From positions 2,016,001 through 2,080,000 of the forward strand of contig OY969934.1 of assembly GCA_963704725.1 (NCBI GenBank): a stretch of DNA of 64,000 nt. Reading direction: 5' to 3'. Source of the DNA: an uncultured Actinomycetes bacterium (lineage in GTDB: Bacteria; Actinomycetota; UBA4738; HRBIN12). Under the pieces are notes generated by a model. The model did no database searches, was not told where the DNA came from, and saw only the letters and a program-made list of their open reading frames with translations. The translations under genes were made by a program, and so were the position numbers. Below, piece by piece: positions 28,617-41,915 of the stretch. Position 1 is the first letter of the stretch. Each line of letters starts with the position of its first letter.

Positions 28617-29537
28617 TCAGGCCGCGCCGAGCAGCCAGAGCAGGAGCGCCTTCTGCGTGTGCATCCGGTTCTCCGCCTGATCCCACACCGCCGAGTGCGG
28701 GCCGTCGATCACCTCGTCGGCGATCTCCTGCCCCCGGTGCGCGGGGAGGCAGTGCAGCACGGTGACGTCGGGCCTGGCCACGTCCACCTTGGCCCGGTCG
28801 AGGGCGAACGCCGGGAACACCAGCGCGCGCTCGTCGGTCTCCGCCTCCTGCCCCATGCTCGCCCACACGTCCGTGTAGAGCACGTCGGAGCCGGCCGACG
28901 CCTCCCGCGGGTCGTTCGTCAGCAGGACGCTGCCCCCCGTCTGCTCGGCGATCTCGGTTGCCCGCTGGACGATCTGGGGGATCGGCTCGAACCCGGGGGG
29001 GGTCGCCACTCGCAGGTGCATGCCCATCTTCGCGCCGCCCAGCAGCAGCGAGTGGGTGACGTTGTTGCCGTCGCCGAGATACGTCAGCGTCCGGCCGGCG
29101 AGATCGCCCTTGATCTCGCGCACGGTCAGCAGGTCCGCCAGACACTGGCAGGGATGCTCGAAGTCCGAGAGCGCGTTGACCACTGGGACCGAGGCCGCCC
29201 CGGCGAGCACCTCGAGCCGCTCCTGCTCGAACGTCCGCAGCACGATCGCGTCCACGTACCGCGACAGCACGCGCCCGGTGTCTTCGATCGTCTCCCCGCG
29301 CCCGAGCTGGAGCTCGCCCGAGGACAGCGCAACCGGATGCGCGCCCGCCGAGGAGATCGCGATCTCGAAGGAGACGCGCGTCCGCGTGGACGGCTTCTCG
29401 AAGATCATCCCCACGGCCTTGTTGCGCAGCGCCTCGGCCCAGTCGCCCGGCTGCGCCTTGACCTTCGCCGACAGGTCGAGCAGGCGCGCCAGCTCCTCGA
29501 CCGCGAGGTCGTCGACCGAGAGGTAATCGCGCTTCAT
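28617..29537 (-). CDS. argF: Ornithine carbamoyltransferase
   Basis: STRTR, HPCQ, GDGNN, DVWASMG, HCLP, QAENR. Confidence 0.96.
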   Translation of the reverse strand: MKRDYLSVDDLAVEELARLLDLSAKVKAQPGDWAEALRNKAVGMIFEKPSTRTRVSFEIAISSAGAHPVALSSGELQLGRGETIEDTGRVLSRYVDAIVLRTFEQERLEVLAGAASVPVVNALSDFEHPCQCLADLLTVREIKGDLAGRTLTYLGDGNNVTHSLLLGGAKMGMHLRVATPPGFEPIPQIVQRATEIAEQTGGSVLLTNDPREASAGSDVLYTDVWASMGQEAETDERALVFPAFALDRAKVDVARPDVTVLHCLPAHRGQEIADEVIDGPHSAVWDQAENRMHTQKALLLWLLGAA

Positions 29538-29582
29538 GCTGCCGCAGTCTAGCGGCCGGATGGAAGCGGGGTGCGCGACGGT

Positions 29583-31958
29583 CTACCCCGACCGGAGCTG
29601 GGCCCCGAAATCGCTCGCCAGGCGCTCGGTCACGGCGTCGACGGCGGCGCCGGCCTCGGCGTCCGTGAGGGTTCGGTCGGGCGCGCGAAGGTCGACCGAG
29701 AAGGCCAGGCTCTTCTTCCCCTCCGGCAGCGGCGGTCCCGTGTGGACGTCGAACAGGACGCACGAGTCCAGGAGGTCGCCGGCCGCCGTCTCGAGCGCGG
29801 CCAGGACCTCTCCCGCGGGGGTGGCGGTGTCCACCGTGAACGCCAGGTCCCGCCGCACGGGGGGGAAGCGAGCCGGCTCGCGGACGGCGAGCGGGCCCGA
29901 GGCGTGCCGCATGAGGGCCCCCACGTCGATCTCGCCGACGGCGACGCGGCCGGCGAGGTCGAACGCGGCCGCGGCCCGGGGGTGGAGCTCACCGAACATG
30001 CCGATCGTCTCGCCGCCCGCCTCCACGGTCGCCGAGCGCCCGGGATGCAGCGGCCCGCCGTGCGACCGACCCGTCGTCCAGGCGATCCCGAGCTCGGCGA
30101 GCATCGCCTCCACCACGCCCTTGGCGTCGAACACGTCGTACTCCCGCCCCCCGCCGGTCCACCCACCGTCGGCGGTCCCCACCAGGACGAACGCCACCGA
30201 CGCCCGCTCGCGGGCCGTGCCGTCCGCGAGACGGAACACCGTGCCCGCCTCGAAGACGGCCACGCTGCGGACGTGCCGGAAGGCGTTCCGCCGGGCCGTG
30301 TGGAGCAGACCGGGAAGCAGCCGGGTCCGCAACCAGCCCTCCTCGGCCTGCAGCGGGTTCGTCACGCGGATCGCGTCCCGGTCCCCCACGATCTCGAGAT
30401 CGCGGTCGGAGGCGAACGGGACCTGCCGTACCTCGCGCGCGCCGGCCCGGACCATCGCGCCGCGGACCCGACGCAGGAACTCGTACCGCTCGGGGAGGCC
30501 TCCGGCCTGGCGGACGGGCGGCAGGGTCGAGCCGATGCGCTCGTACCCCTGGATCCGGGCGATCTCCTCGATCAGGTCGACCTCGCGCTCCAGGTCCACC
30601 CGGTAGCCGGGAACCTCCACGCCGACGGCGCCGTCCCCCGCGACCGCGTGGACCATGCCGAGCCGGTCGAAGACCGCCTCGGCGTCGGCGGCCGAGACCG
30701 GGTAGCCGATCAGCGCGCCGGCTCGGCTCGGACGGACCGGGATCCGGCGTCGCTGCGGTGGGCCGCCCACCTCGATGACCCCACGCAGGACCGTCGCTCC
30801 ACACCAGAGCTGCATCAGGCGGCAGGCGCGGCCCGCTCCCACCGGCACCGCCTCCGGATCGACGCCACGCTCGAACCGCATCGAGGCCTCCGTCGACAGC
30901 TCGAGCCGGCGGCGCGTCCGCTGGACCCCTTCGCGCTGGAACGACGCGGCCTCCAGCAGGATCTCGGTGGTGGACTGGGAGATCTCGGCGAGCTCGCCGC
31001 CCATCACGCCGGCCACGCCGATGGGGCGCTCGACGTCGCAGATCAGCAGGTCGTCGTCGGTAAACGTGCGCTCGACGTCGTCGAGCGTGACCATCCGCTC
31101 CCCCTCCTCGGCGCGCCGGACCACGATGCCGGGGCCCTTGAGCAGGGGCAGGTCGAACGGATGCAGCGGCTGCCCCACCTCGAGCATCGCGTAGTTCGTC
31201 GCGTCGACCGCGGCCGAGATGGGGCGCATCCCGGCGGCCGTGAGCCGGGCCTGGGCCGCGATCGGCGACGGCACGTGCCGCACGTCCCGCAGGACACGGG
31301 CGAGGTAGCGGGGGCACCGGTCCCGGTCGAGGACCTCGAGCGTGGCGGTGCCCCCCGCGGGCTCGTCGGTGTCCAGCGGGGCCCAGTCGACGGGCGCGAG
31401 CGGCGTGCCCGTGGCCGCCGAGACCTCCCGGGCGATCCCGAGGACCGAGAGGAAGTCGGGGCGGTTCGGCGTGACCTCGATGTCGAGCACGGCATCGTGC
31501 AGGCCGAACGCCTCGGCCACGTCGCGCCCGGGCTCGAGCTCCGTCGGCAGGATCAGGATGCCCTCGTGCGAGGGCGAGATCCCGAGCTCGTCGGGCGCGC
31601 AGAGCATGCCGTCGGAGACGACGCCGCGGATCTCACGGGCGGTCAGCGGCTCCGGGAGCATCGGCACCCGGGCGCCGGGACCGGCCAACGGCACGAGGTC
31701 CCCCGCCGCCATGTTGCGGACGCCGACGACGACCTCCTGCTCGCCCGAGCCCGTCTGCACGCGCGCCAGGCACAGCCGGTCGCTGTTGGGGTGGTCACGG
31801 ACCTCGATCACGCGCGCGACGACGACGCCCGACAGGTTCGCCCACGGCCGCTCGATCGACTCGACCTCGGCGCCGACATGCGTGAGCAGCTCCGCCAGCT
31901 CCTCGGCGGGGAGATCCGTCGGACACAGCTCCCGGAGCCAGGTCAGGACGATCTTCAC
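29583..31958 (-). CDS. pheT: Phenylalanine--tRNA ligase beta subunit
   Basis: HPNSDRL, TPNRPD, RFERGVD, DLIEEIAR, RRDLAF, KKSLAF. Confidence 0.97.
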   Translation of the reverse strand: MKIVLTWLRELCPTDLPAEELAELLTHVGAEVESIERPWANLSGVVVARVIEVRDHPNSDRLCLARVQTGSGEQEVVVGVRNMAAGDLVPLAGPGARVPMLPEPLTAREIRGVVSDGMLCAPDELGISPSHEGILILPTELEPGRDVAEAFGLHDAVLDIEVTPNRPDFLSVLGIAREVSAATGTPLAPVDWAPLDTDEPAGGTATLEVLDRDRCPRYLARVLRDVRHVPSPIAAQARLTAAGMRPISAAVDATNYAMLEVGQPLHPFDLPLLKGPGIVVRRAEEGERMVTLDDVERTFTDDDLLICDVERPIGVAGVMGGELAEISQSTTEILLEAASFQREGVQRTRRRLELSTEASMRFERGVDPEAVPVGAGRACRLMQLWCGATVLRGVIEVGGPPQRRRIPVRPSRAGALIGYPVSAADAEAVFDRLGMVHAVAGDGAVGVEVPGYRVDLEREVDLIEEIARIQGYERIGSTLPPVRQAGGLPERYEFLRRVRGAMVRAGAREVRQVPFASDRDLEIVGDRDAIRVTNPLQAEEGWLRTRLLPGLLHTARRNAFRHVRSVAVFEAGTVFRLADGTARERASVAFVLVGTADGGWTGGGREYDVFDAKGVVEAMLAELGIAWTTGRSHGGPLHPGRSATVEAGGETIGMFGELHPRAAAAFDLAGRVAVGEIDVGALMRHASGPLAVREPARFPPVRRDLAFTVDTATPAGEVLAALETAAGDLLDSCVLFDVHTGPPLPEGKKSLAFSVDLRAPDRTLTDAEAGAAVDAVTERLASDFGAQLRSG

Positions 31959-33001
31959 GCCACGCCCTCGAACTGCTCGAGGAACCGGACGTCGCCCTCG
32001 AAGAACAGCCGAAGGTCGTGCACGCCGAATCTGACCATGGCCACCCGCTCGATGCCCAGGCCGAACGCGAACCCCGTGTACCGCTCGGAGTCGTACCCGC
32101 AGTTCTCGAGCACCTTGGGGTGCACCATGCCGGCGCCGAGCAGCTCGATCCAACCGTTGCCGCACACGCGGCATCCCGCCCCGTCGCAGATGAAGCACGA
32201 GACCGCGGCCTGGCAGCCGGGCTCGACGAACGGGAAGTAGTCGGGCGAGATCCGCACCCGCGTCCGTTCGCCGAACATCTCGCGGGCGAACGCCTCGAGC
32301 GTCCCCTTGAGGTCGGCGAACGAGATCCCCTCGTCCACGGCCAGCCCCTCGACCTGATGGAACACCGATCCGTGGGTGGCGTCCGGGTTCTCTCGCCGGT
32401 AGACGCGTCCCGGAACGACCACGGCGACGGGCGGTTGCTGCGACTCCATCGTTCGGATCTGCACGGCCGAGGTCTCCGTCCGCATCAGCAGGCCCGGAAC
32501 GTCAACGTAGAGCGAGTCCTTCATCGTTCGGGCGGGATGGTCGGACGGGATGTTCAGCGCCTCGAAGTTGTGCCAGTCGTCCTCGATCTCGGGGCCCTCG
32601 GCGACGCGGTAGCCCATCCGCGTGAAGATCTCGACGATCCGGTCCTCGACCAGCGTGAGCGGATGGAGCGAGCCGGGTCGGGGACGCCGTCCGGGCAGGG
32701 TGACGTCGACCGCGTCGGCGGAGAGCAGGGCCGCGTCCGCCCCGAGCTCGAGCCCCGTGCGGCGCGTCTCGAGGGCGTCGCGGAGATCGGAGAACGCGCG
32801 GTTCGTCAGCCGGCCGACCTCACGGCGATCGTCGTCCGCGAACGCGCCGAGCGACCTCTGCACCTCGCTCAGCCGGGACCTGCGCCCGAGGGCGGCGACC
32901 TTGGCCTCCTCGAGCGCTTCGACGGAGCCGGCGGCGCCGATCAGCTCCCGGCCCCGCGCGACCTCCTCTTCGAGGATGCGTCGAGCGTCGCTCGGGTCCA
33001 T
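31955..33001 (-). CDS. pheS: Phenylalanine--tRNA ligase alpha subunit
   Basis: HPARTMKD, FHQVEGL, YFPFVEP, CxxC...CxxC insert, GFAFGLGIER. Confidence 0.97.
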   Translation of the reverse strand: MDPSDARRILEEEVARGRELIGAAGSVEALEEAKVAALGRRSRLSEVQRSLGAFADDDRREVGRLTNRAFSDLRDALETRRTGLELGADAALLSADAVDVTLPGRRPRPGSLHPLTLVEDRIVEIFTRMGYRVAEGPEIEDDWHNFEALNIPSDHPARTMKDSLYVDVPGLLMRTETSAVQIRTMESQQPPVAVVVPGRVYRRENPDATHGSVFHQVEGLAVDEGISFADLKGTLEAFAREMFGERTRVRISPDYFPFVEPGCQAAVSCFICDGAGCRVCGNGWIELLGAGMVHPKVLENCGYDSERYTGFAFGLGIERVAMVRFGVHDLRLFFEGDVRFLEQFEGVA

Positions 33002-33055
33002 GTGTCCGGCGAGTCTAGCAAGCCACTGTGCGCGGACCGGCCGCGCCGAGCCGGG

Positions 33056-34501
33056 TCAGCCCGGCGGCCTGGGCCCGCCCGACGGCACGTCCAGGACGAA
33101 CGACAGCGTCCCGTCCTGCACGTGGACGGACGCGGTGCCGCCCTGCGACGTGGCCACGCCGAGGGCGACGAACAGCCCGATCTTGCTTCCGGCCCCCGTC
33201 CCGGGGGGGCGCGGACGGAACAGCCGCTCCGCATCGGCTTGCGACAGATCGGTCCCGTGCCGGGAGGTGACGAGCACGAAGCGGCCCTGTTGCACGGAGC
33301 CCTCGACCTCCACAGGCCCGTCGCTCGTCCACCACACGAGCGACTCGACGAAGGCCTCGAGGATCATCCGCAGCCGCTCGGGGTCGGCGAAGACCTCGAG
33401 GGCCTCCCCCCGCCACAGCACGGGCGGGTGATCTGGGTCGCGACGCAGGGACTCCGCCGTGCTCCCCACGAGCGCCGCGACGTCCACGCGCTCGGGGTAC
33501 AGGTCGAGCGACCCGGCCGCCAGGCGGGCGGCGTCGACGAGCTGGCGCAGGATGCCGTTGAGCCGGTCGGTGTCGTACACGATCCCGGCCAGCATCAGCT
33601 CGCGCTGCTCGTCGGTCATCTGCTCCCACCGGTTCGCGAGGGCGTGCCCGAACCCCTTCATCGCCGTGAGCGGCGAGCGGATGTCGTGCGCCGCCGCCGC
33701 GATCACCGTCTCGAGCACCGCGCGCCGCCCCTGGCGGCGCTGGCGGGCCCACTCGAACAGGCACACGGTGGCGGCCGCGGCCAGGTTGAGCGACTCGGCC
33801 GCGCCCTCGATCGGCACGCGAACGGTGGCGTCGGCGAGCCGGCTGACGTCGGTGGGCAGCCCCCAGGCCTCGTTGCCGAACAGGAAGGCCACGGGGTCTG
33901 CGAGGTCGAGCTCGTACAGGTCGGCGTCGCCGTGGGCGTCCATGGCCAGGACCCGGAACCCCCGGTCCTTCAGCTCCCGAGTGGCGGCTGCCGTGTCCGC
34001 GCCCCGGACGACGGGGACGTGGAAGAGCGAGCCGGCCGAGGCCCGGACGGTCTTCGGGTTGTAGACGTCTACGGAATCGGCGCTGAAGACCACGGCGCCC
34101 GCGCCGATCGCGTCCGCGGATCGAAGTATCGTCCCGGCGTTGCCGGGATCGCGGACCGAATGCAGCAGGGCGACGCATCCCGTCTCGAGCTCGAGCGACT
34201 CCAGACCGGCGTCGAGGTACCCGGCCACGCCGACCAGCCCCTGCGGCGTGACGGTCGAGGTGAGCTTGCCCATCACGTCCTCGCTCACCTCGATGAGCTC
34301 GACGCCCCCCTCCCGAGCCCGGTCCAGGAGCGGGTGCGGGCGGTCGGTGTGGTAGAGGCCGAGCAGCCCGGCGGGGTGCCCGAGCGCCTCCCCCACCCCC
34401 TGGGCGCCCTCCACGAGGAACCGCCGCTCGCCGTCCCGGAACGACCGCTTCTTCAGCTTGAGGACAACCGCCACGCGCTCGTTCCGCGTCGACGTGATCA
34501 C
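33056..34501 (-). CDS. TrmH/SpoU RNA methyltransferase fused to HisKA plus degenerate HATPase domains
   Basis: DPGNAGTILRSA, FGNEAWGL, AESLNLA, then directly HDIRSPLT and a kinase-like C-terminus in one open frame. Confidence 0.9.
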   Translation of the reverse strand: MITSTRNERVAVVLKLKKRSFRDGERRFLVEGAQGVGEALGHPAGLLGLYHTDRPHPLLDRAREGGVELIEVSEDVMGKLTSTVTPQGLVGVAGYLDAGLESLELETGCVALLHSVRDPGNAGTILRSADAIGAGAVVFSADSVDVYNPKTVRASAGSLFHVPVVRGADTAAATRELKDRGFRVLAMDAHGDADLYELDLADPVAFLFGNEAWGLPTDVSRLADATVRVPIEGAAESLNLAAAATVCLFEWARQRRQGRRAVLETVIAAAAHDIRSPLTAMKGFGHALANRWEQMTDEQRELMLAGIVYDTDRLNGILRQLVDAARLAAGSLDLYPERVDVAALVGSTAESLRRDPDHPPVLWRGEALEVFADPERLRMILEAFVESLVWWTSDGPVEVEGSVQQGRFVLVTSRHGTDLSQADAERLFRPRPPGTGAGSKIGLFVALGVATSQGGTASVHVQDGTLSFVLDVPSGGPRPPG

Positions 34502-34553
34502 GCGGGCCCCCGAGGGACGTCGAAACCGGTTCGGGGGCGACCGCCCCGGCGGC

Positions 34554-34913
34554 TCACGAAGCCAGCGCGTCCTTGGCGGTCTGCGCGAGCTGTCCGAAGG
34601 CGCCCGGGTCGTGCACCGCCAGGTCCGCGAGGATCTTCCGGTCGACCTCGACACCCGCCTTCTGCAGGCCGTGGATCATCCGCGAGTAGGACAGGCCGTT
34701 CTGGCGGGCGCCGGCCCCGATCCGCGCGATCCACAGCCGGCGGAACTGGCCCTTGCGGTCTCGCCGGTCCCGGTACGCGTACTGGCCGGAGTGGAGCAGC
34801 TGCTCCTTGGCCACCCGGTACCGGCGCGAGCGCGACCCGAAGTAGCCCTTGGCCTGTCGCAGCACCTCGCGGCGCTTCTTCTTGGCGTGGACGGAGCGCT
34901 TGACCCGTGCCAT
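34554..34913 (-). CDS. rplT: 50S ribosomal protein L20
   Basis: [31 protein letters not shown]. Confidence 0.98.
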
Positions 34914-34919
34914 CCCCGC

Positions 34920-35108
34920 CTACTTCCCCAGCAGCCGGCGGATGTTGGTGCGCTCGGCCGTGACCTCGGCCATGCCCTCCACGCGACGTCGCCGACTGCC
35001 GCTCTTCTTCGTGAGGAAGTGGTTCCCCGTCGCCTTTCGGTGCAGGATCTTCCCCGTTCGGGTGATCCGGAAGCGCTTGGCGCTCGCCCGGTGCGTCTTC
35101 TGCTTCAT
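34920..35108 (-). CDS. rpmI: 50S ribosomal protein L35
   Basis: KTHRASAKRFRITRTGK; between infC and rplT. Confidence 0.97.
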   Translation of the reverse strand: MKQKTHRASAKRFRITRTGKILHRKATGNHFLTKKSGSRRRRVEGMAEVTAERTNIRRLLGK

Positions 35109-35157
35109 CGATCCGTCCTCGCTGTCGACTCCGACGCCGGTGTGCGGCGGTTCGTGC

Positions 35158-35766
35158 TCAGGCGCCCTGTGATTCGACCGGGGCCGCCGCGGGCGGCGCC
35201 TCGGATCGGGCCGGGCTCGCGTTCGGCGAGGGCGCCTCCACCCGGTGCTCGGTCGGCTTCTTGCTCGGCGCGATCACCATGACCATGTTGCGCCCGTCCT
35301 GCTTGGGCTGCGCCTCGACGACCGCGACCCCGCTCAGGTCCTGCACCAACCGGTCGAGGATCTTGCGGCCGAGGTCCGTGTGGGCCATCTCGCGACCGCG
35401 GAACATGATCGTGACCTTGACCCGCGCACCCGCCGAAAGGAACCGCACGACGTGACCCTTCTTCGTGGCGTAGTCGTGCGGATCGATCTTCGGGCGGAAC
35501 TTGATCTCCTTGACCTCGATCCTGGCCTGCTTCTTGCGGGCCTCCTTCTGGCGGATGTCGCGCTCGTACTTGTACTTCCCGTAGTCCATGATCCTGGCCA
35601 CGGGGGGATTCGCCTGCGGCGCCACCTCCACCAGATCGAGGTCGAGCTCCTGGGCTTGCCGGAGCGCCTCCTGCGTGGAGACGATCCCGATCTGCGACCC
35701 GTCGGCACCCACCAGCCGCACCTGCGGCGAGCGGATCCGGTCGTTTATGCGCGGATCAGCCGAGAC
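35158..35766 (-). CDS. infC: Translation initiation factor IF-3 (non-canonical start, probably GTC)
   Basis: PRINDRIR, LDLVEV, MDYGKYKY, KEIKFRP, MFRGRE. Confidence 0.96.
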   Translation of the reverse strand, partial: VSADPRINDRIRSPQVRLVGADGSQIGIVSTQEALRQAQELDLDLVEVAPQANPPVARIMDYGKYKYERDIRQKEARKKQARIEVKEIKFRPKIDPHDYATKKGHVVRFLSAGARVKVTIMFRGREMAHTDLGRKILDRLVQDLSGVAVVEAQPKQDGRNMVMVIAPSKKPTEHRVEAPSPNASPARSEAPPAAAPVESQGA

Positions 35767-35774
35767 CCCGCATC

Positions 35775-35842
35775 ACCTCCCTACCGAGACAAAGGCACCG
35801 GCCGTCCGCCGGTGCCGAGGGTGGAGCACGGTGAACCGTTCC
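35775..35842 (-). promoter_or_regulatory. Structured infC leader (candidate L20-responsive element)
   Basis: ACGG-TTCA-CCGT hairpin, CTCCACC, 9-bp stem GGCACCGGC/GCCGGTGCC followed by TTTGT, then SD. Confidence 0.45.
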
Positions 35843-35847
35843 CGGGG

Positions 35848-35877
35848 AGTATAGGTGCAGGCTGGGGGCGGTGTCGA
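35848..35877 (-). promoter_or_regulatory. Promoter of the infC operon
   Basis: TCGACA-18 nt-TATACT. Confidence 0.65.
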
Positions 35878-35904
35878 CGGGATGCGCATCCCCGAGCGCG
35901 GCGC

Positions 35905-36108
35905 TTACAGGGGCCGGACGTTGGCCGCCTGCTTGCCCTTCGGGCCGTCCACCACGTCGAATTCGACGGACTGCCCCTCGGTGAGCGACCGGTACCCCTC
36001 CCCCGAGATCGCGGAGAAGTGGACGAACACGTCCTCCGCGCCCTCCCGCGAGATGAACCCGTAGCCCTTCTCGTTGCTGAACCACTTCACGGTGCCCTGC
36101 TCGGCCAA
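35905..36108 (-). CDS. Cold-shock protein
   Basis: GTVKWF, KGYGFI, DVFVHFS; TTG start with GGAGG SD. Confidence 0.96.
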
Positions 36109-36197
36109 CGGTTCCTCCAGGTACGTGAGCGGCGCGGAGCCTAGCACGAGGGTGCCCGCGGCTCAACGCGGGCCGCCGGGCCAGGAGCGGACGGCGA

Positions 36198-36548
36198 TCA
36201 CCAGTCGGGCTCGAGGGGGCGGCCGTAGTCGTCCTGCAGGCGCAGGGTGTCGTCTTCCGTCGTGTAGCCGTAGGCGATCTCCAGGACGCGCCCCCGGGCC
36301 CCGCCGCCGTTGGCGATGCGGTGGGTCGTCTCGGCCGAGACCATGAACTCCTCCCCCGGCGCGGCCTCGACCGTCTTGTTGCCGATCTGCACCGTGAGCC
36401 CGGGGTCGAGCACCACCCACATCTCGTCCCGCATCTGGTGGTAGTGGACGCTCGTCTCCTGCGCCGGCTCCACCGTGATCACCCGGACGGAGCTCGGCTG
36501 GTTGAGCGCGTACGTGACCACCTTGCCCCACGGCTTGTCGACGATCAT
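36198..36548 (-). CDS. Cupin, phosphomannose-isomerase type II C-terminal-like
   Basis: KPWG, SVHYHQMRDEMW, HRI, LEI, RLQDDYGR; ATGA overlap with ribH. Confidence 0.85.
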   Translation of the reverse strand: MIVDKPWGKVVTYALNQPSSVRVITVEPAQETSVHYHQMRDEMWVVLDPGLTVQIGNKTVEAAPGEEFMVSAETTHRIANGGGARGRVLEIAYGYTTEDDTLRLQDDYGRPLEPDW

Positions 36549-37030
36549 CGACCCTCCTGTTCGGTCCCCTTCGGCAGCTGCTCGAGGACCGAGGACGTCT
36601 CCATGGCCGCCATCGCCGCGTCCCATCCCTTGTTGCCGTGCTTGCCCCCGGCCCGGTCCATGGCCTGGTCGAAGGTGTCGGTCGTGAGCACGCCGAAGAT
36701 GACCGGCACGCCCGTGACCTCGGCCGCCGCGCGGATCCCGCTCGCGGCCTCGCCGGCCACGTAGTCGAAGTGCGCGGTCTCGCCCCGGATCACCGCGCCG
36801 AGGCAGATCACGGCGTCGATGCCCGACGCGGCCAGGCGCCGGGCCACCAGCGGCAGCTCGAACGCACCGGGGACCCACGCCACGAGGAGGTCGTCCTCGG
36901 CCACGCCGTGGGCCCGCAGGCAGGCGAGCGCCCCCTCGAGGAGCTTCGCCGTGACGATCTCGTTGAACCGGGACACGACGAGCGCGAACCGCCGTCCCCG
37001 GGCCTGGAAGTCGCCCCGGATCTCGTTCAT
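36545..37030 (-). CDS. ribH: 6,7-dimethyl-8-ribityllumazine synthase
   Basis: SRFN, VPGAFELP, IRGETAHF, GNKG. Confidence 0.97.
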   Translation of the reverse strand: MNEIRGDFQARGRRFALVVSRFNEIVTAKLLEGALACLRAHGVAEDDLLVAWVPGAFELPLVARRLAASGIDAVICLGAVIRGETAHFDYVAGEAASGIRAAAEVTGVPVIFGVLTTDTFDQAMDRAGGKHGNKGWDAAMAAMETSSVLEQLPKGTEQEGR

Positions 37031-38322
37031 GGCGCGTCTGTCGCCAGCGTCCCGAGCCCGGCCGCCAGGTCCTCGGGGAGGTCACCATCCAGCTGGTGCA
37101 GGATGTGGCCCATCTTCTCCCGCTTCGTCCGCAGGTACTCGATGTTGCGGGGGTTCGGCCGAGTCTCGAGCGGCACCCGCTCCAGGATCGACAGCCCGTA
37201 GCCCTCCAGGCCCGCCCGCTTGGACGGGTTGTTCGTGAGCAGGCGCATCGTGCGGACGCCGAGGTCGCCGAGGACCTGCGCGCCGATCCCGTAGTCGCGG
37301 GGATCGGCCGGGAACCCCAGCTCGACGTTGGCCTCGACCGTGTCCCGCCCCTGCTCCTGGAGCCGATAGGCGCGGAACTTGTGAGTCAGGCCGATGGCCC
37401 GCCCCTCGTGCCCCCGGATGTACAGGACGACGCCGCGGCCCTCCTGGCCGATCCGCTCGACCGCGCGCTGCAACTGGTCGCCGCAGTCGCATCGCAGGGA
37501 GCCGAAGACGTCGCCGGTCAGGCACTCCGAATGGACGCGCACGAGGACCTCCTCGCCGTCCCCGATCTCGCCGAGCACGAGCGCCAGATGAACGTGGCCG
37601 TCGATCAGGCTCTCGTACGTGTAGGCCGTGAAGTCGCCGTGCTCGGTGGGGATGACGGCCTCGGCCGTGCGCCGCACGAGCTGCTCGCGGTGGCGCCGGT
37701 ACTCGATGAGATCGGCGATCGAGATGATCTTGAGACCGTGCCGCTGCGCCACCCGCACGAGCTCGGGCAGCCGCGCCATCGACCCGTCGGGATGGAGCAC
37801 CTCGCACAGGACGCCCGCCGGGTACAGCCCCGCCAGGCGGGCCAGGTCGACCGTGGCCTCGGTGTGGCCGGCCCGGCGCAGGACGCCGCCCTCCTGCGCC
37901 ATCAGCGGGAAGACGTGGCCGGGCATGCGGATGTCGCCCGGGACGAGCTCGGGGTCGGCGATCGCCCGCACCGTGGCGGCGCGATCGAACGCGCTCGTGC
38001 CGGTCGTGGTCCGGCCCTTGATGTCGATCGAGACGGCGAAGGCCGTTCCGTGGCTCTCGTTGTTCTTCGAGACCATGAGCGGGATCCGGAGCTCGTCCAG
38101 CCGCTGGGCGGTCACCGGCATGCACACGATGCCCCGACCGTTCGTCACCATGAAGTTGAGCCGCTCCGGGGTGGCCATCTCGGCCGCCATGATGAAGTCG
38201 CCCTCGTTCTCGCGATCGGCGTCGTCGACCACGATGACGATCTTGCCGTCGCGGATGTCCTGCACGGCCTCGTCGATCGTGGCGAACGTGGATCGATCCA
38301 CGTCGTCCTGGGTCCGACTCAT
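37027..38322 (-). CDS. ribBA: Bifunctional DHBP synthase / GTP cyclohydrolase II
   Basis: DRENEGD, PGHVFPL, GHTEA, RVHSECLTGD, RCDCG, LLTNNP. Confidence 0.97.
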   Translation of the reverse strand: MSRTQDDVDRSTFATIDEAVQDIRDGKIVIVVDDADRENEGDFIMAAEMATPERLNFMVTNGRGIVCMPVTAQRLDELRIPLMVSKNNESHGTAFAVSIDIKGRTTTGTSAFDRAATVRAIADPELVPGDIRMPGHVFPLMAQEGGVLRRAGHTEATVDLARLAGLYPAGVLCEVLHPDGSMARLPELVRVAQRHGLKIISIADLIEYRRHREQLVRRTAEAVIPTEHGDFTAYTYESLIDGHVHLALVLGEIGDGEEVLVRVHSECLTGDVFGSLRCDCGDQLQRAVERIGQEGRGVVLYIRGHEGRAIGLTHKFRAYRLQEQGRDTVEANVELGFPADPRDYGIGAQVLGDLGVRTMRLLTNNPSKRAGLEGYGLSILERVPLETRPNPRNIEYLRTKREKMGHILHQLDGDLPEDLAAGLGTLATDAP

Positions 38323-38906
38323 GACTCTCTCCCCTCGAGCAGCGCTTCCACGTACTTCGCGAACACGTCGACCTCCAGGTTCACCGGGTCGCCGGCGCGG
38401 GCCGACCCGAGCGTCGTCACCTCCAGCGTGTGCGGGATCACCGCCACCGAGAACGTCCCATCCTCGAGCGCGGCGACGGTGAGGCTGATCCCGTCGACGC
38501 ACACGGATCCCTTCTCCACCAGGTAGCGGCGGACCTCCGGGGGCACCGCCACCGTGAGCCAGGCGCCCCCGTCCTCGGTGGGACCCAGGGACCGGACCTC
38601 GCCGACGGCGTCGACGTGGCCCTGCACCAGGTGGCCGCCGAGCCGGCTCGACAGCGTGAGCGGTCGTTCCAGGTTGACCGGGTCGCCCGAGGACAGCCGG
38701 GCGAGCCCGGTGCGACGAAGTGTCTCCTCGGAAAGGTCGAACGCGAGGCGCTCCCGGGACCGTTCGACGACCGTCAGACAGACCCCGTTGACGGCGATCG
38801 ACGCCCCGACCTCGGCGTCAGAGCTCACCGTGTGGCAGCCCACGGCGAGGCGCGACGGGCCCACCTCCCGCACGACGCCGCGCTCCTCAACGATCCCGGT
38901 GAACAT
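38319..38906 (-). CDS. ribE: Riboflavin synthase alpha chain
   Basis: MFTGIVEE, NGVCLT, VNLER, GGHLVQGHVD, DGISLT. Confidence 0.97.
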   Translation of the reverse strand: MFTGIVEERGVVREVGPSRLAVGCHTVSSDAEVGASIAVNGVCLTVVERSRERLAFDLSEETLRRTGLARLSSGDPVNLERPLTLSSRLGGHLVQGHVDAVGEVRSLGPTEDGGAWLTVAVPPEVRRYLVEKGSVCVDGISLTVAALEDGTFSVAVIPHTLEVTTLGSARAGDPVNLEVDVFAKYVEALLEGRES

Positions 38907-40280: not shown

Positions 40281-41210
40281 TCAGACGATGCGGCGGTCGA
40301 CGGCGTAGGAGGAGCGCAGCTCCCGCTTCGCGAACTGCTTCATCTCGGTGGCGACGGCGACGGCCTCGCCGTAGTGGGCGAATCGGCGGACCTGCGTCGT
40401 GGCGATCCCCACCGACACGCCCGCCAGGGGCAGCTTCTGGAGCACGCCCTTGCGATCCTCGACCTCGACGTACCCGCGCTCCAGGTCCTCCGCCTCGTAG
40501 AACTCCCGGACCTCCTCGTCGAACCGCTCGACGATGCGCTTGGCCGCGTCCTCGGCGATGTCGGGCGGCACCACGGCCACGAAGTCGTCCCCGCCGACGT
40601 GTCCCACGAACCCGTCGGAGCCGGCGAACTCCACCACCGCGTCCTGGATGATGCGCGCGGTCGCCTGGATGAGCCGGTCGCCCCGCACGAACCCCTTCTG
40701 GTCGTTGTACGCCTTGAAGTTGTCGAGGTCGCAGTACAAGACGGCGAACGGGCGATCCTCCCGGACCTCCCGCTCGATCTCCTCCTGGATCCGGATGTTG
40801 CCGGGCAGGCCCGTGAGCGGCGACAGGTTGCGCATCTCCTTGGCCCGCCGGAGCGTGCCCTTCACCCGCGCGAGCAGCTCGATGGGGTCGAAGGGCTTGA
40901 TGATGTAGTCGTCGGCGCCGGCGGTCAGGCCGAGCACCTTGTCGGTGGACAGCGCCTTCGCCGTGAGCATGATGATCGACGTGTTCGACGTCTGCGGGTT
41001 GCGCCGCAACCGTTGTGCCACCTCGAACCCGTCGATCCGCGGCATCATGACGTCCAGCAGGACGAGGTCGGGGCGGAGCGTGGCCGCCTTCTCGAGCGCC
41101 TCCTCCCCGTCGGAGGCGACGGACACGTCATAGCCGGCGCTCCGCAGGTTGACCTCGACGAACCTCGCGATGTCCGGGTCGTCGTCGACGACGAGGATCG
41201 TCTCGGGCAT
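40281..41210 (-). CDS. Response regulator receiver plus GGDEF diguanylate cyclase
   Basis: VVDDD, LLDVMMP, LTA, KPF; PLTGLPG, DLDNFKAYND, GHVGGDDF. Confidence 0.93.
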   Translation of the reverse strand: MPETILVVDDDPDIARFVEVNLRSAGYDVSVASDGEEALEKAATLRPDLVLLDVMMPRIDGFEVAQRLRRNPQTSNTSIIMLTAKALSTDKVLGLTAGADDYIIKPFDPIELLARVKGTLRRAKEMRNLSPLTGLPGNIRIQEEIEREVREDRPFAVLYCDLDNFKAYNDQKGFVRGDRLIQATARIIQDAVVEFAGSDGFVGHVGGDDFVAVVPPDIAEDAAKRIVERFDEEVREFYEAEDLERGYVEVEDRKGVLQKLPLAGVSVGIATTQVRRFAHYGEAVAVATEMKQFAKRELRSSYAVDRRIV

Positions 41211-41866
41211 CAGGCCGGCTCCACGACGGCTTTGAGATCGCGCACCGCCGCCGCGACGTCGGGGGCCCCGAAGATGGCCGAGCCCGCCACGAGGACGGTG
41301 GCGCCGGCGTCGACGCACCGGCGGGCCGCGTCGAGGTCCACGCCGCCCTCGACCTCGACGTCGGCGCTCAGGCCCCGGCGCTCGAGCTCGGCCCGCACCG
41401 CGGCGATCCGCGGCAGGGCCTCGGGCATGAACGTGTCCCCGTTCCGGCCGGGGTGGACGCTCATCACGATCACGTCGTCGACGTCCTCGAGGCTCGGGAA
41501 CACGGTCTCGATCGGCGTCTGGGGGCCCACGGCCAGTCCGACGCCCATGCCGGCGCCCCTGGCCTTGGCGATCACCGGAGACGGGTCCGCCGCGGCCTCC
41601 ACGTGGAACCCGACCAGATCCGTCCCGGCCTCGGCGAGCTCGTCGAACACTGCCTCGGGCGACTCGACCATGAGGTGCGCGTGGAGCGTTCGGTCCGTGT
41701 GGGGGCGGAGCGAGGCCACGACTACGGGTCCGATCGTGAGCGGCGCGACGAAGTGGGCGTCCATGACGTCGACGTGGATCACGTCGACGTGCCGGTCGAC
41801 CGCCCCCACCTGGTCCGCGAGGCTCGCGAGATCCGCGGACAGGATCGAGGCCGAGAGTTTGCCCAT
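41210..41866 (-). CDS. rpe: Ribulose-phosphate 3-epimerase homolog, active site divergent
   Basis: SILSAD, HVDVMD, HLMV, FHVEA, VAGSAIF; follows rsmB. Confidence 0.88.
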   Translation of the reverse strand: MGKLSASILSADLASLADQVGAVDRHVDVIHVDVMDAHFVAPLTIGPVVVASLRPHTDRTLHAHLMVESPEAVFDELAEAGTDLVGFHVEAAADPSPVIAKARGAGMGVGLAVGPQTPIETVFPSLEDVDDVIVMSVHPGRNGDTFMPEALPRIAAVRAELERRGLSADVEVEGGVDLDAARRCVDAGATVLVAGSAIFGAPDVAAAVRDLKAVVEPA

Positions 41867-41915
41867 CGCGCGCGATTCTAGGCGCAAGGCCGGGCCGCGA
41901 CCCGCACATCCGACG

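Follow-up and report, generated by a model that had tools for sequence, protein, structure and literature searches.

The N, G1 and G2 boxes of histidine kinases bind Mg-ATP, and in EnvZ replacement of the N-box Asn alone is enough to abolish kinase activity. Some kinases whose ATPase domain is degenerate act as phosphotransferases, among them PhyT, ChpT and Spo0B; as described in passages of PMC5898713, these join a DHp domain with a conserved His to a catalytic and ATP-binding (CA)-like domain that is unable to bind ATP, and they provide a precedent for an ATP-independent role in phosphotransfer or as a phosphatase. The rRNA methyltransferases RlmR (T. thermophilus), RlmP/YsgA (B. subtilis) and MRM3 consist of an L30e-like domain and a SPOUT domain, after which they end; according to passages of PMC12123411, the solved entries are RlmR (Um2552) and RlmP (Gm2553). 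The two-component pair OhkA-OrrA (SCO1596 and SCO3008) is summarized in parts of a review as controlling antibiotic production and sporulation in Streptomyces (PMC9739842); its input signal is not named in the literature passages searched. The 64,000-nt stretch of DNA analyzed here (the window; G000:C1:2016001-2080000), from the 3.45-Mb single-contig genome of an uncultured Actinomycetes bacterium, carries a gene in which a methyltransferase of the RlmR/RlmP/MRM3 type continues into the core of an OhkA-type histidine kinase whose ATP-binding residues have been replaced. Unlike the fused protein, ChpT, Spo0B and PhyT carry no enzyme domain in the sensor position; PhyT is moreover of the HRxxN (HWE/HisKA2-like) type, whereas the fused protein is of the HisKA type.

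The gene occupies 33056-34501 on the minus strand. The first-pass annotation, made from the sequence alone, had recognized a single 481-aa open reading frame (ORF) between rplT (34554-34913, minus strand) and pheS (31955-33001, minus strand), and the ORF list, synteny and translation agree: a GTG start lies 52 nt past the rplT stop, 481 codons and a stop follow, the latter 54 nt before the ATG of pheS, and full-length relatives were found. All motifs quoted in that annotation (DPGNAGT, FGNE, ESLNL, WARQRRQGRR, HDIRSPLT, ADPERLRMIL, EAFVESL, RHGTD and GAGSKIGL) are present in the translation. From the N-terminus, and always on the minus strand, the protein possesses an L30e-like RNA substrate-binding domain (residues 7-92; 34226-34483) with the fold of RlmR and YsgA, matched by PF08032 at 29.3 bits and by PF22435 (MRM3-like_sub_bind, residues 7-91) at 50.4 bits; a SPOUT (SpoU/TrmH) catalytic domain (residues 111-249; 33755-34171; SpoU_methylase 128.9 bits versus a cut-off of 29.7); a junction (residues 250-265, EWARQRRQGRRAVLET; 33707-33754); a DHp domain (HisKA, residues 264-330; 33512-33712; 38.5 bits versus a cut-off of 26.9); and a CA-like alpha/beta domain of HK853-like fold without ATP-binding residues (residues 337-473; 33083-33493). 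The latter is matched by HATPase_c over residues 373-472 at 16.6 bits, under the Pfam cut-off of 26.4. The Pfam scan of the 481-aa protein reported no PAS, GAF or transmembrane family, in keeping with the absence of such a sensor noted earlier.

The SpoU/TrmH domain is complete. Three SpoU motifs are defined by conserved Asn, Arg, Glu and Ser-Leu-Asn residues; in the protein these correspond to N121, R127, E211 and G214, present in 40/40 fused proteins, and to S237 and N239, present in 39/40. The best solved relatives by sequence are RlmR (E 3e-35) and RlmP/YsgA (4e-33). Foldseek likewise aligned the N-terminal half to RlmR (9h1k) over both domains, with a template-modelling (TM) score of 0.89 and 36% identity, the identity to YsgA/RlmP being 33%. 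The NCBIfam RlmB equivalog TIGR00186 scored 122.7 bits, below its cut-off of 160.15; the SpoU_methylase match, the L30e-like domain and the three SpoU motifs place the protein in the RlmR/RlmP/MRM3-like subgroup of the SpoU/TrmH family. The N-terminal half is thus a putative A-loop-type 23S rRNA 2'-O-methyltransferase. Its architecture is that of RlmR, RlmP/YsgA and MRM3, except that these end after the SPOUT domain, whereas the fused protein continues into the kinase core.

In the kinase-derived half the H-box HDIRSPLT carries the phospho-acceptor position at His272, whose codon (33686-33688, minus strand) lies where it had been placed earlier. Alignment to ZraS, HK853 and 20 canonical syntenic kinases reveals Ser387 (codon 33341-33343, minus strand) at the position of the Mg-ATP-binding Asn of the N-box, Arg414 (33260-33262, minus strand) at that of the adenine-binding Asp of G1, and Lys440 (33182-33184, minus strand) at that of the second Gly of G2. 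The substituting residues are in turn conserved. Among 40 fused proteins drawn from families f1-f4 and f6-f8 of the class (L004 and L028, which are unpublished, L032, which is cut by a contig end, and L053 and L066, which lack a start codon near the aligned start, were left out of the alignments), residue 387 is Ser in 17, Ala in 17, Gly in four, and Val and Thr in one each, with Asn in 0/40; residue 414 is Arg in all 40; and residue 440 is Lys in 38 and Arg in two. The Asn, Asp and Gly are found at these three diagnostic positions in 12/12 canonical comparators. The ATP lid is four residues shorter than that of canonical relatives. W390 is found in 40/40 fused proteins, as are H272, D273, R275 and P277 of the H-box. 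The protein thus has the DHp domain and phospho-acceptor His of an active HisKA kinase, and lacks an above-threshold HATPase_c domain and the N, G1 and G2 residues; a DHp His next to a CA-like domain without ATP-binding residues is the combination seen in kinase-derived phosphotransferases. No sequence relation to ChpT or Spo0B was seen among the 12 PDB matches listed.

The fusion is a property of the class rather than of one genome. A match through both halves was found in 39 of 40 relatives, which include the unpublished genomes G011, G029 and G037, the exception being G034, a genome that is 61% complete. In a wider sample of 151 genomes of the class, comprising one order and families f1-f8 and including twelve unpublished genomes, 150 match and, by our count, about 139 have one match crossing the junction at the same locus. 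The protein database adds more than 120 clusters of proteins of about 480 aa from five sources, 66-100% identical, the named members of which are annotated as "TrmH family RNA methyltransferase" and derive from metagenome-assembled genomes (MAGs) labelled Actinomycetota bacterium. Mean pairwise identity is highest in SPOUT (0.63), intermediate in the N-terminal domain and DHp (0.56 each) and lowest in CA (0.45). The ratio of nonsynonymous to synonymous substitution (dN/dS), calculated with our own Nei-Gojobori (NG86) script, is informative only in close pairs since dS, which saturates near 0.8-1.0, is saturated in all others. The values for DHp, CA and SPOUT are 0.03, 0.17 and 0.17 in L002-L003; 0.06, 0.21 and 0.08 in L063-L064; 0.20, 0.34 and 0.23 in L060-L061; and 0.17, 0.31 and 0.34 in L061-L062, DHp being the lowest among the four domains in the close pairs. 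Together with the conserved replacements at the ATP-binding positions, these values mark the kinase half as a selected pseudokinase domain and not a remnant. The comparison of orthologues that the first-pass annotation had set as the test of its proposal has not refuted it: the His is invariant, the loss of the N-box and G1 residues is fixed, and the kinase half is under purifying selection.

When the kinase half alone was searched against 250 other genomes of the phylum, homologues of 27-36% identity were obtained. In 20 outgroup genomes, chosen among the better matches and including three Streptomyces-like genomes (7.5-9.2 Mb), the place with the highest score was examined. In 20/20 of these loci pheS follows directly downstream of the best homologue; rplT flanks it on the opposite side in 19/20 (L038, the exception, begins at a contig end), and a separate trmH lies between kinase and rplT in 13/20. 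The three Streptomyces-like genomes have the order rplT, trmH, PAS-kinase, pheS, which is the arrangement of separate trmH and OhkA genes that the first-pass annotation gave for Streptomyces; the adjacency agrees with the locus numbers SCO1596 for OhkA (given in part of PMC9739842) and SCO1595 for pheS (given in part of PMC10771440). Because of this adjacency and the 20/20 synteny, the kinase half is the OhkA orthologue by position. All syntenic outgroup kinases possess canonical H, N, G1 and G2 boxes. Ten of these kinase ORFs were scanned; eight are PAS-HisKA-HATPase_c proteins, the remaining two, from families f9 and f16, are HisKA-HATPase_c proteins of 227-237 aa without a sensor, and HATPase_c scores 97-112 bits in the ten. 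The kinase half resembles OhkA in its position, with pheS directly downstream and rplT and trmH upstream, and it shares with the OhkA-type orthologues a DHp helix 1 signature, HE/D-[IL]-RSPLT..KGF...L..RW. The OhkA-type orthologues differ in being encoded by separate genes, usually with PAS as the sensor, and in their canonical HATPase_c domain; here the core is fused in frame to TrmH and lacks both PAS and the ATP-binding residues, which have been replaced. As had been proposed, the SPOUT domain occupies the sensor position, which in the orthologues is held by PAS. In L033, L035, L036 and L039 (f16) and in L034 and L037 (f18) the kinase adjoins pheS and no trmH lies between kinase and rplT; the f16 kinases are sensorless, those of L033 and L039 being 237-243 aa long.

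The position of orrA leads to a candidate partner. In a Streptomyces-like genome a NarL-type regulator lies beside hpf, three genes beyond mtrAB-lpqB, in agreement with the description of orrA in the parts consulted of a 2026 preprint. Its orthologue in the source genome, outside the window at G000:C1:2617974-2618666 (minus strand), is 72% identical to the Streptomyces-like counterpart (L082:1495-2190), the next best match being 44%. The order comF-hpf-response regulator is the same in both genomes, with a comF-like gene and a short hpf (ribosome hibernation factor). The regulator is phosphorylatable, its receiver residues DD, D, T and K being intact, and it is found in 143 of the 151 class genomes. 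With 66-100% identity within the class, it is also better conserved than the kinase half. For DHp helix 1, identity to the OhkA-type orthologues is 39-54%, versus 29-39% to the genome's own paralogues, whereas the CA domain shows 20-26% identity to orthologues and own paralogues alike, that is, background level. Since the OrrA orthologue is kept and DHp helix 1 is closer to the OhkA-type orthologues, these comparisons favor retention of the ancestral partner. The partner suggested earlier, a receiver-GGDEF protein placed at 40281-41210, is a far poorer candidate than the regulator at the OrrA position. Its domains are present, and no link to the fused gene was found; it was not tested further. 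The ORF (40281-41909, minus strand) encodes a receiver followed by a GGDEF domain, the match to which covers profile positions 5-111 of 161, and its true start is probably internal, because about 237 residues lie upstream of the receiver; the shorter coordinates given earlier assume the same.

The protein was modeled using AlphaFold2 on a 37-row alignment (mean predicted local distance difference test, pLDDT, 89.9). According to DSSP, a single helix (240-290) is predicted to continue the last SPOUT helix up to and beyond His272; residues 297-329 form DHp helix 2 and residues 337-473 the alpha/beta CA-like domain. The junction lies within the first of these helices (pLDDT 73-76). Foldseek matched the C-terminal half to HK853 with a TM score of 0.78, DivL appearing at rank 50. 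A homodimer was predicted with a score of 0.73 versus 0.00 for the best of three controls, a mark reached by 20/30 proteins solved as one-chain pairs and 1/23 solved as single chains; the runs had at least 84% of contacts in common, with a partner pLDDT of 82. The predicted interface is unbroken through SPOUT (124-133, 154-161 and 229-257), the linker and DHp (267-331). Since SPOUT and kinase dimers have both been solved, this prediction speaks for likeness and for the compatibility of two dimer modes, not for binding.

Fusions with an intact ATP site, which had no place in the first-pass annotation, occur elsewhere. Besides the proteins of the class, an exhaustive search of representative proteins yielded ten fused proteins of 449-516 aa, 29-39% identical to the query (P0141-P0216), which possess SpoU, HisKA and an HATPase_c domain of 45-102 bits, with Asn, Asp and Gly at the diagnostic positions; one cluster takes in an NCBI MAG protein labelled Acidimicrobiales bacterium. 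A survey of a 401-genome sample of the phylum added two more species, G563 (f80; L119) and G488 (f14; L120), whose stop-free fusions lie at the rplT-pheS locus and have canonical N, G1 and G2 boxes. These proteins have the three-part TrmH-HisKA-HATPase_c architecture in common with the class proteins, and share the rplT-pheS locus where this was checked (L119 and L120); they differ in their canonical boxes, HATPase_c scores and low identity and, in at least one case, in the junction, which is Pro/Ala-rich in G488 versus short and helical here. This Pro/Ala-rich linker suggests an independent fusion event. Family f9, contrary to expectation, has no stop-free fusion in any of 86 genomes (26 of them unpublished, among them G445, G453, G444 and G418). 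In nine of the 86, trmH shares its frame with a canonical kinase that has no sensor, the two being parted by a single stop; most of the others have separate adjacent matches. The one-stop cases are L113 (G220), G439, G442, G420, G429 and four unpublished genomes, the stop being TGA, TAG or TAA, and they could represent a fission of recent date, a stage preceding fusion or a stop-codon read-through site.

In a quick maximum-likelihood tree of 62 kinase cores, the 37 class proteins form one clade (Shimodaira-Hasegawa-like approximate likelihood ratio test 100) on a long stem of 1.54 changes per site; its sister group, with a support of 90, consists of the sensorless f9 kinases. This suggests that loss of PAS was followed by fusion and then by loss of the ATP site, an order that is only suggested because the tree is rooted at its midpoint and the more careful search is incomplete. 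In much of the phylum (13 of the 20 outgroup loci examined) trmH and the kinase gene are neighbors, and they have been fused more than once; this constitutes a Rosetta-stone signal that methyltransferase and OhkA-type kinase cooperate.

We surmise that the protein is a bifunctional dimer in which the OhkA-derived module works without ATP, as phosphatase or phosphotransferase on an OrrA-like regulator, with the state of the SPOUT domain as input; we put the probability of this reading at roughly 0.45. The gene product would be a homodimer, its N-terminal half an intact L30e-SPOUT methyltransferase of the A-loop group and its last SPOUT helix running into the DHp four-helix bundle of a core derived from the neighboring OhkA-type PAS kinase. 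The PAS sensor has been given up in the class, with the SPOUT dimer in its place. In the CA domain the Mg-ATP-binding Asn, the adenine-binding Asp and a lid Gly have given way to Ser or Ala, Arg and Lys, and with these residues exchanged the protein should therefore be unable to autophosphorylate with ATP. His272 would either take phosphoryl groups from the OrrA-like NarL-type regulator or dephosphorylate it, and the state of the SPOUT domain (rRNA precursor, S-adenosylmethionine (SAM) or S-adenosylhomocysteine (SAH) bound) would be passed along the continuous helix as input.

Several points weigh against this proposal. The kinase half has been lost in genera g33 (1.3-1.6 Mb genomes) and g52 (family f7), where trmH is followed by pheS within 40-80 nt and no orthologue of the kinase half was found elsewhere in the genomes; as trmH was kept, the kinase module is dispensable and trmH is not. 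In g33 the OrrA orthologue is missing as well (3/3 genomes without a match), and this joint loss, which would accord with a partnership, could simply be due to genome reduction; g52 retains an OrrA orthologue of 66-75% identity, and the regulator is therefore independent of the kinase module. No OrrA-phosphorylating kinase was identified in the class, the closest other kinase cores in the source genome being 25-31% identical. The OhkA-OrrA pairing is itself known from the summary in one review, consulted in part, of phenotypic, transcriptomic and two-hybrid work (PMC9739842). The putative target of the methyltransferase, U2552 or G2553, is suggested by similarity; saturation of dS in all but the closest pairs limits the dN/dS analysis; and the homodimer prediction may be a memory of solved SPOUT and kinase dimers.

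Among the competing explanations, the one that survives best would take the kinase-derived half out of phosphoryl chemistry, leaving it as a dimerization domain or a ribosome- or RNA-binding extension with the Arg, Lys and Trp-Trp of the old ATP pocket as a new surface. The conserved residues R414, K440, W390 and W391 are indeed basic or aromatic, the CA domain has diverged to background identity, the kinase half has been cleanly lost at least twice with trmH kept, and the pseudokinase DivL is among the structural matches. We nevertheless regard this explanation as unlikely, since the exposed H-box is invariant, no domain is more constrained than DHp in close pairs, the orthologue signature including the RW motif persists in DHp helix 1, and a phosphorylatable OrrA-like regulator is kept.

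The signal might instead flow in reverse, with His272 being phosphorylated by back-transfer from the regulator and gating the rRNA methyltransferase via the continuous helix. This arrangement is accommodated by the helix linking the SPOUT dimer to His272 and by the predicted interface that continues through both modules, and according to passages of PMC5898713 the transfer carried out by Spo0B is reversible. Such control is nonetheless improbable: the PAS sensor at the equivalent position in the orthologues suggests that the N-terminal domain is the input, and trmH works alone in the lineages without a kinase half.

A protein that is still an autokinase, binding nucleotide or another phosphodonor unconventionally, is very improbable. 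The CA fold, G438, G442, G454, G455 and F428 are retained, and phosphates could be contacted by the introduced Arg and Lys residues; against this, the Mg-ATP-binding Asn, the adenine-binding Asp and the G2 Gly are missing in 40/40 proteins, the lid is shortened, and the HATPase_c score is far below those of the orthologues and of the canonical fused forms. Finally, an assembly artefact or frameshift, suggested at first sight by relative G159, in which the gene lies in two frames but infC, pheS and pheT are broken too, is ruled out by the same open frame across relatives, class genomes and protein clusters, and a neutrally decaying remnant by close-pair dN/dS well below 1 and the invariant box residues. 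In that relative (L075, G159:C1:471600-478800) all genes from infC to pheT are split into several frames on a 2.65-Mb contig, which points to indel errors rather than pseudogenes.

A broader proposal, which we put forward tentatively, is that the A-loop methyltransferase beside ohkA may be the physiological input of OhkA-OrrA across the Actinomycetota, reporting ribosome assembly, A-loop methylation or SAM/SAH, and that in the class the pathway may have been rewired to an ATP-independent, SPOUT-gated phosphatase or phosphotransferase, its pocket plugged by Arg414 and Lys440. If true, it would explain why trmH and the kinase stay adjacent and have fused repeatedly. It would also give genetically tractable Streptomyces a hypothesis, that ribosome or SAM status is sensed through the neighboring TrmH. 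Kinases turned phosphotransferase or phosphatase that are blind to ATP are already known (for example ChpT, Spo0B and PhyT). No description of a kinase-derived phosphotransferase or phosphatase with an rRNA-modifying enzyme in the sensor position, and none of any SPOUT-kinase fusion, was found in the main texts of the literature searched, and neither "histidine kinase" nor "fusion" occurs in the text of a SPOUT review (PMC9508554). The locus is of value chiefly for the Rosetta-stone connection it offers between an rRNA methyltransferase and developmental signaling through OhkA-OrrA, in a class of uncultured soil actinobacteria.

The fused gene belongs to a co-directional run on the minus strand, infC (35158-35721), a gap, rplT, the fused gene, pheS and pheT (29583-32198 in the ORF list). 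From infC to pheS no promoter-like or terminator-like site was found on the minus (coding) strand, which fits co-transcription; two terminator-like matches, 34855-34874 and 35242-35256, lie on the plus strand of this interval. No Rfam family matched within 29000-37000 at E up to 0.1. Upstream of infC an ORF (35905-36147, minus strand) was judged by eye from its translation to be cold-shock-protein-like; it is followed by a promoter-like site (35877-35848) and then, just upstream of infC, by a terminator-like hairpin (35816-35794). The ORFs at 36545-37030 and 37027-38502 (minus strand) resemble, again by eye, the riboflavin genes for lumazine synthase and for a DHBP synthase/GTP cyclohydrolase II fusion.

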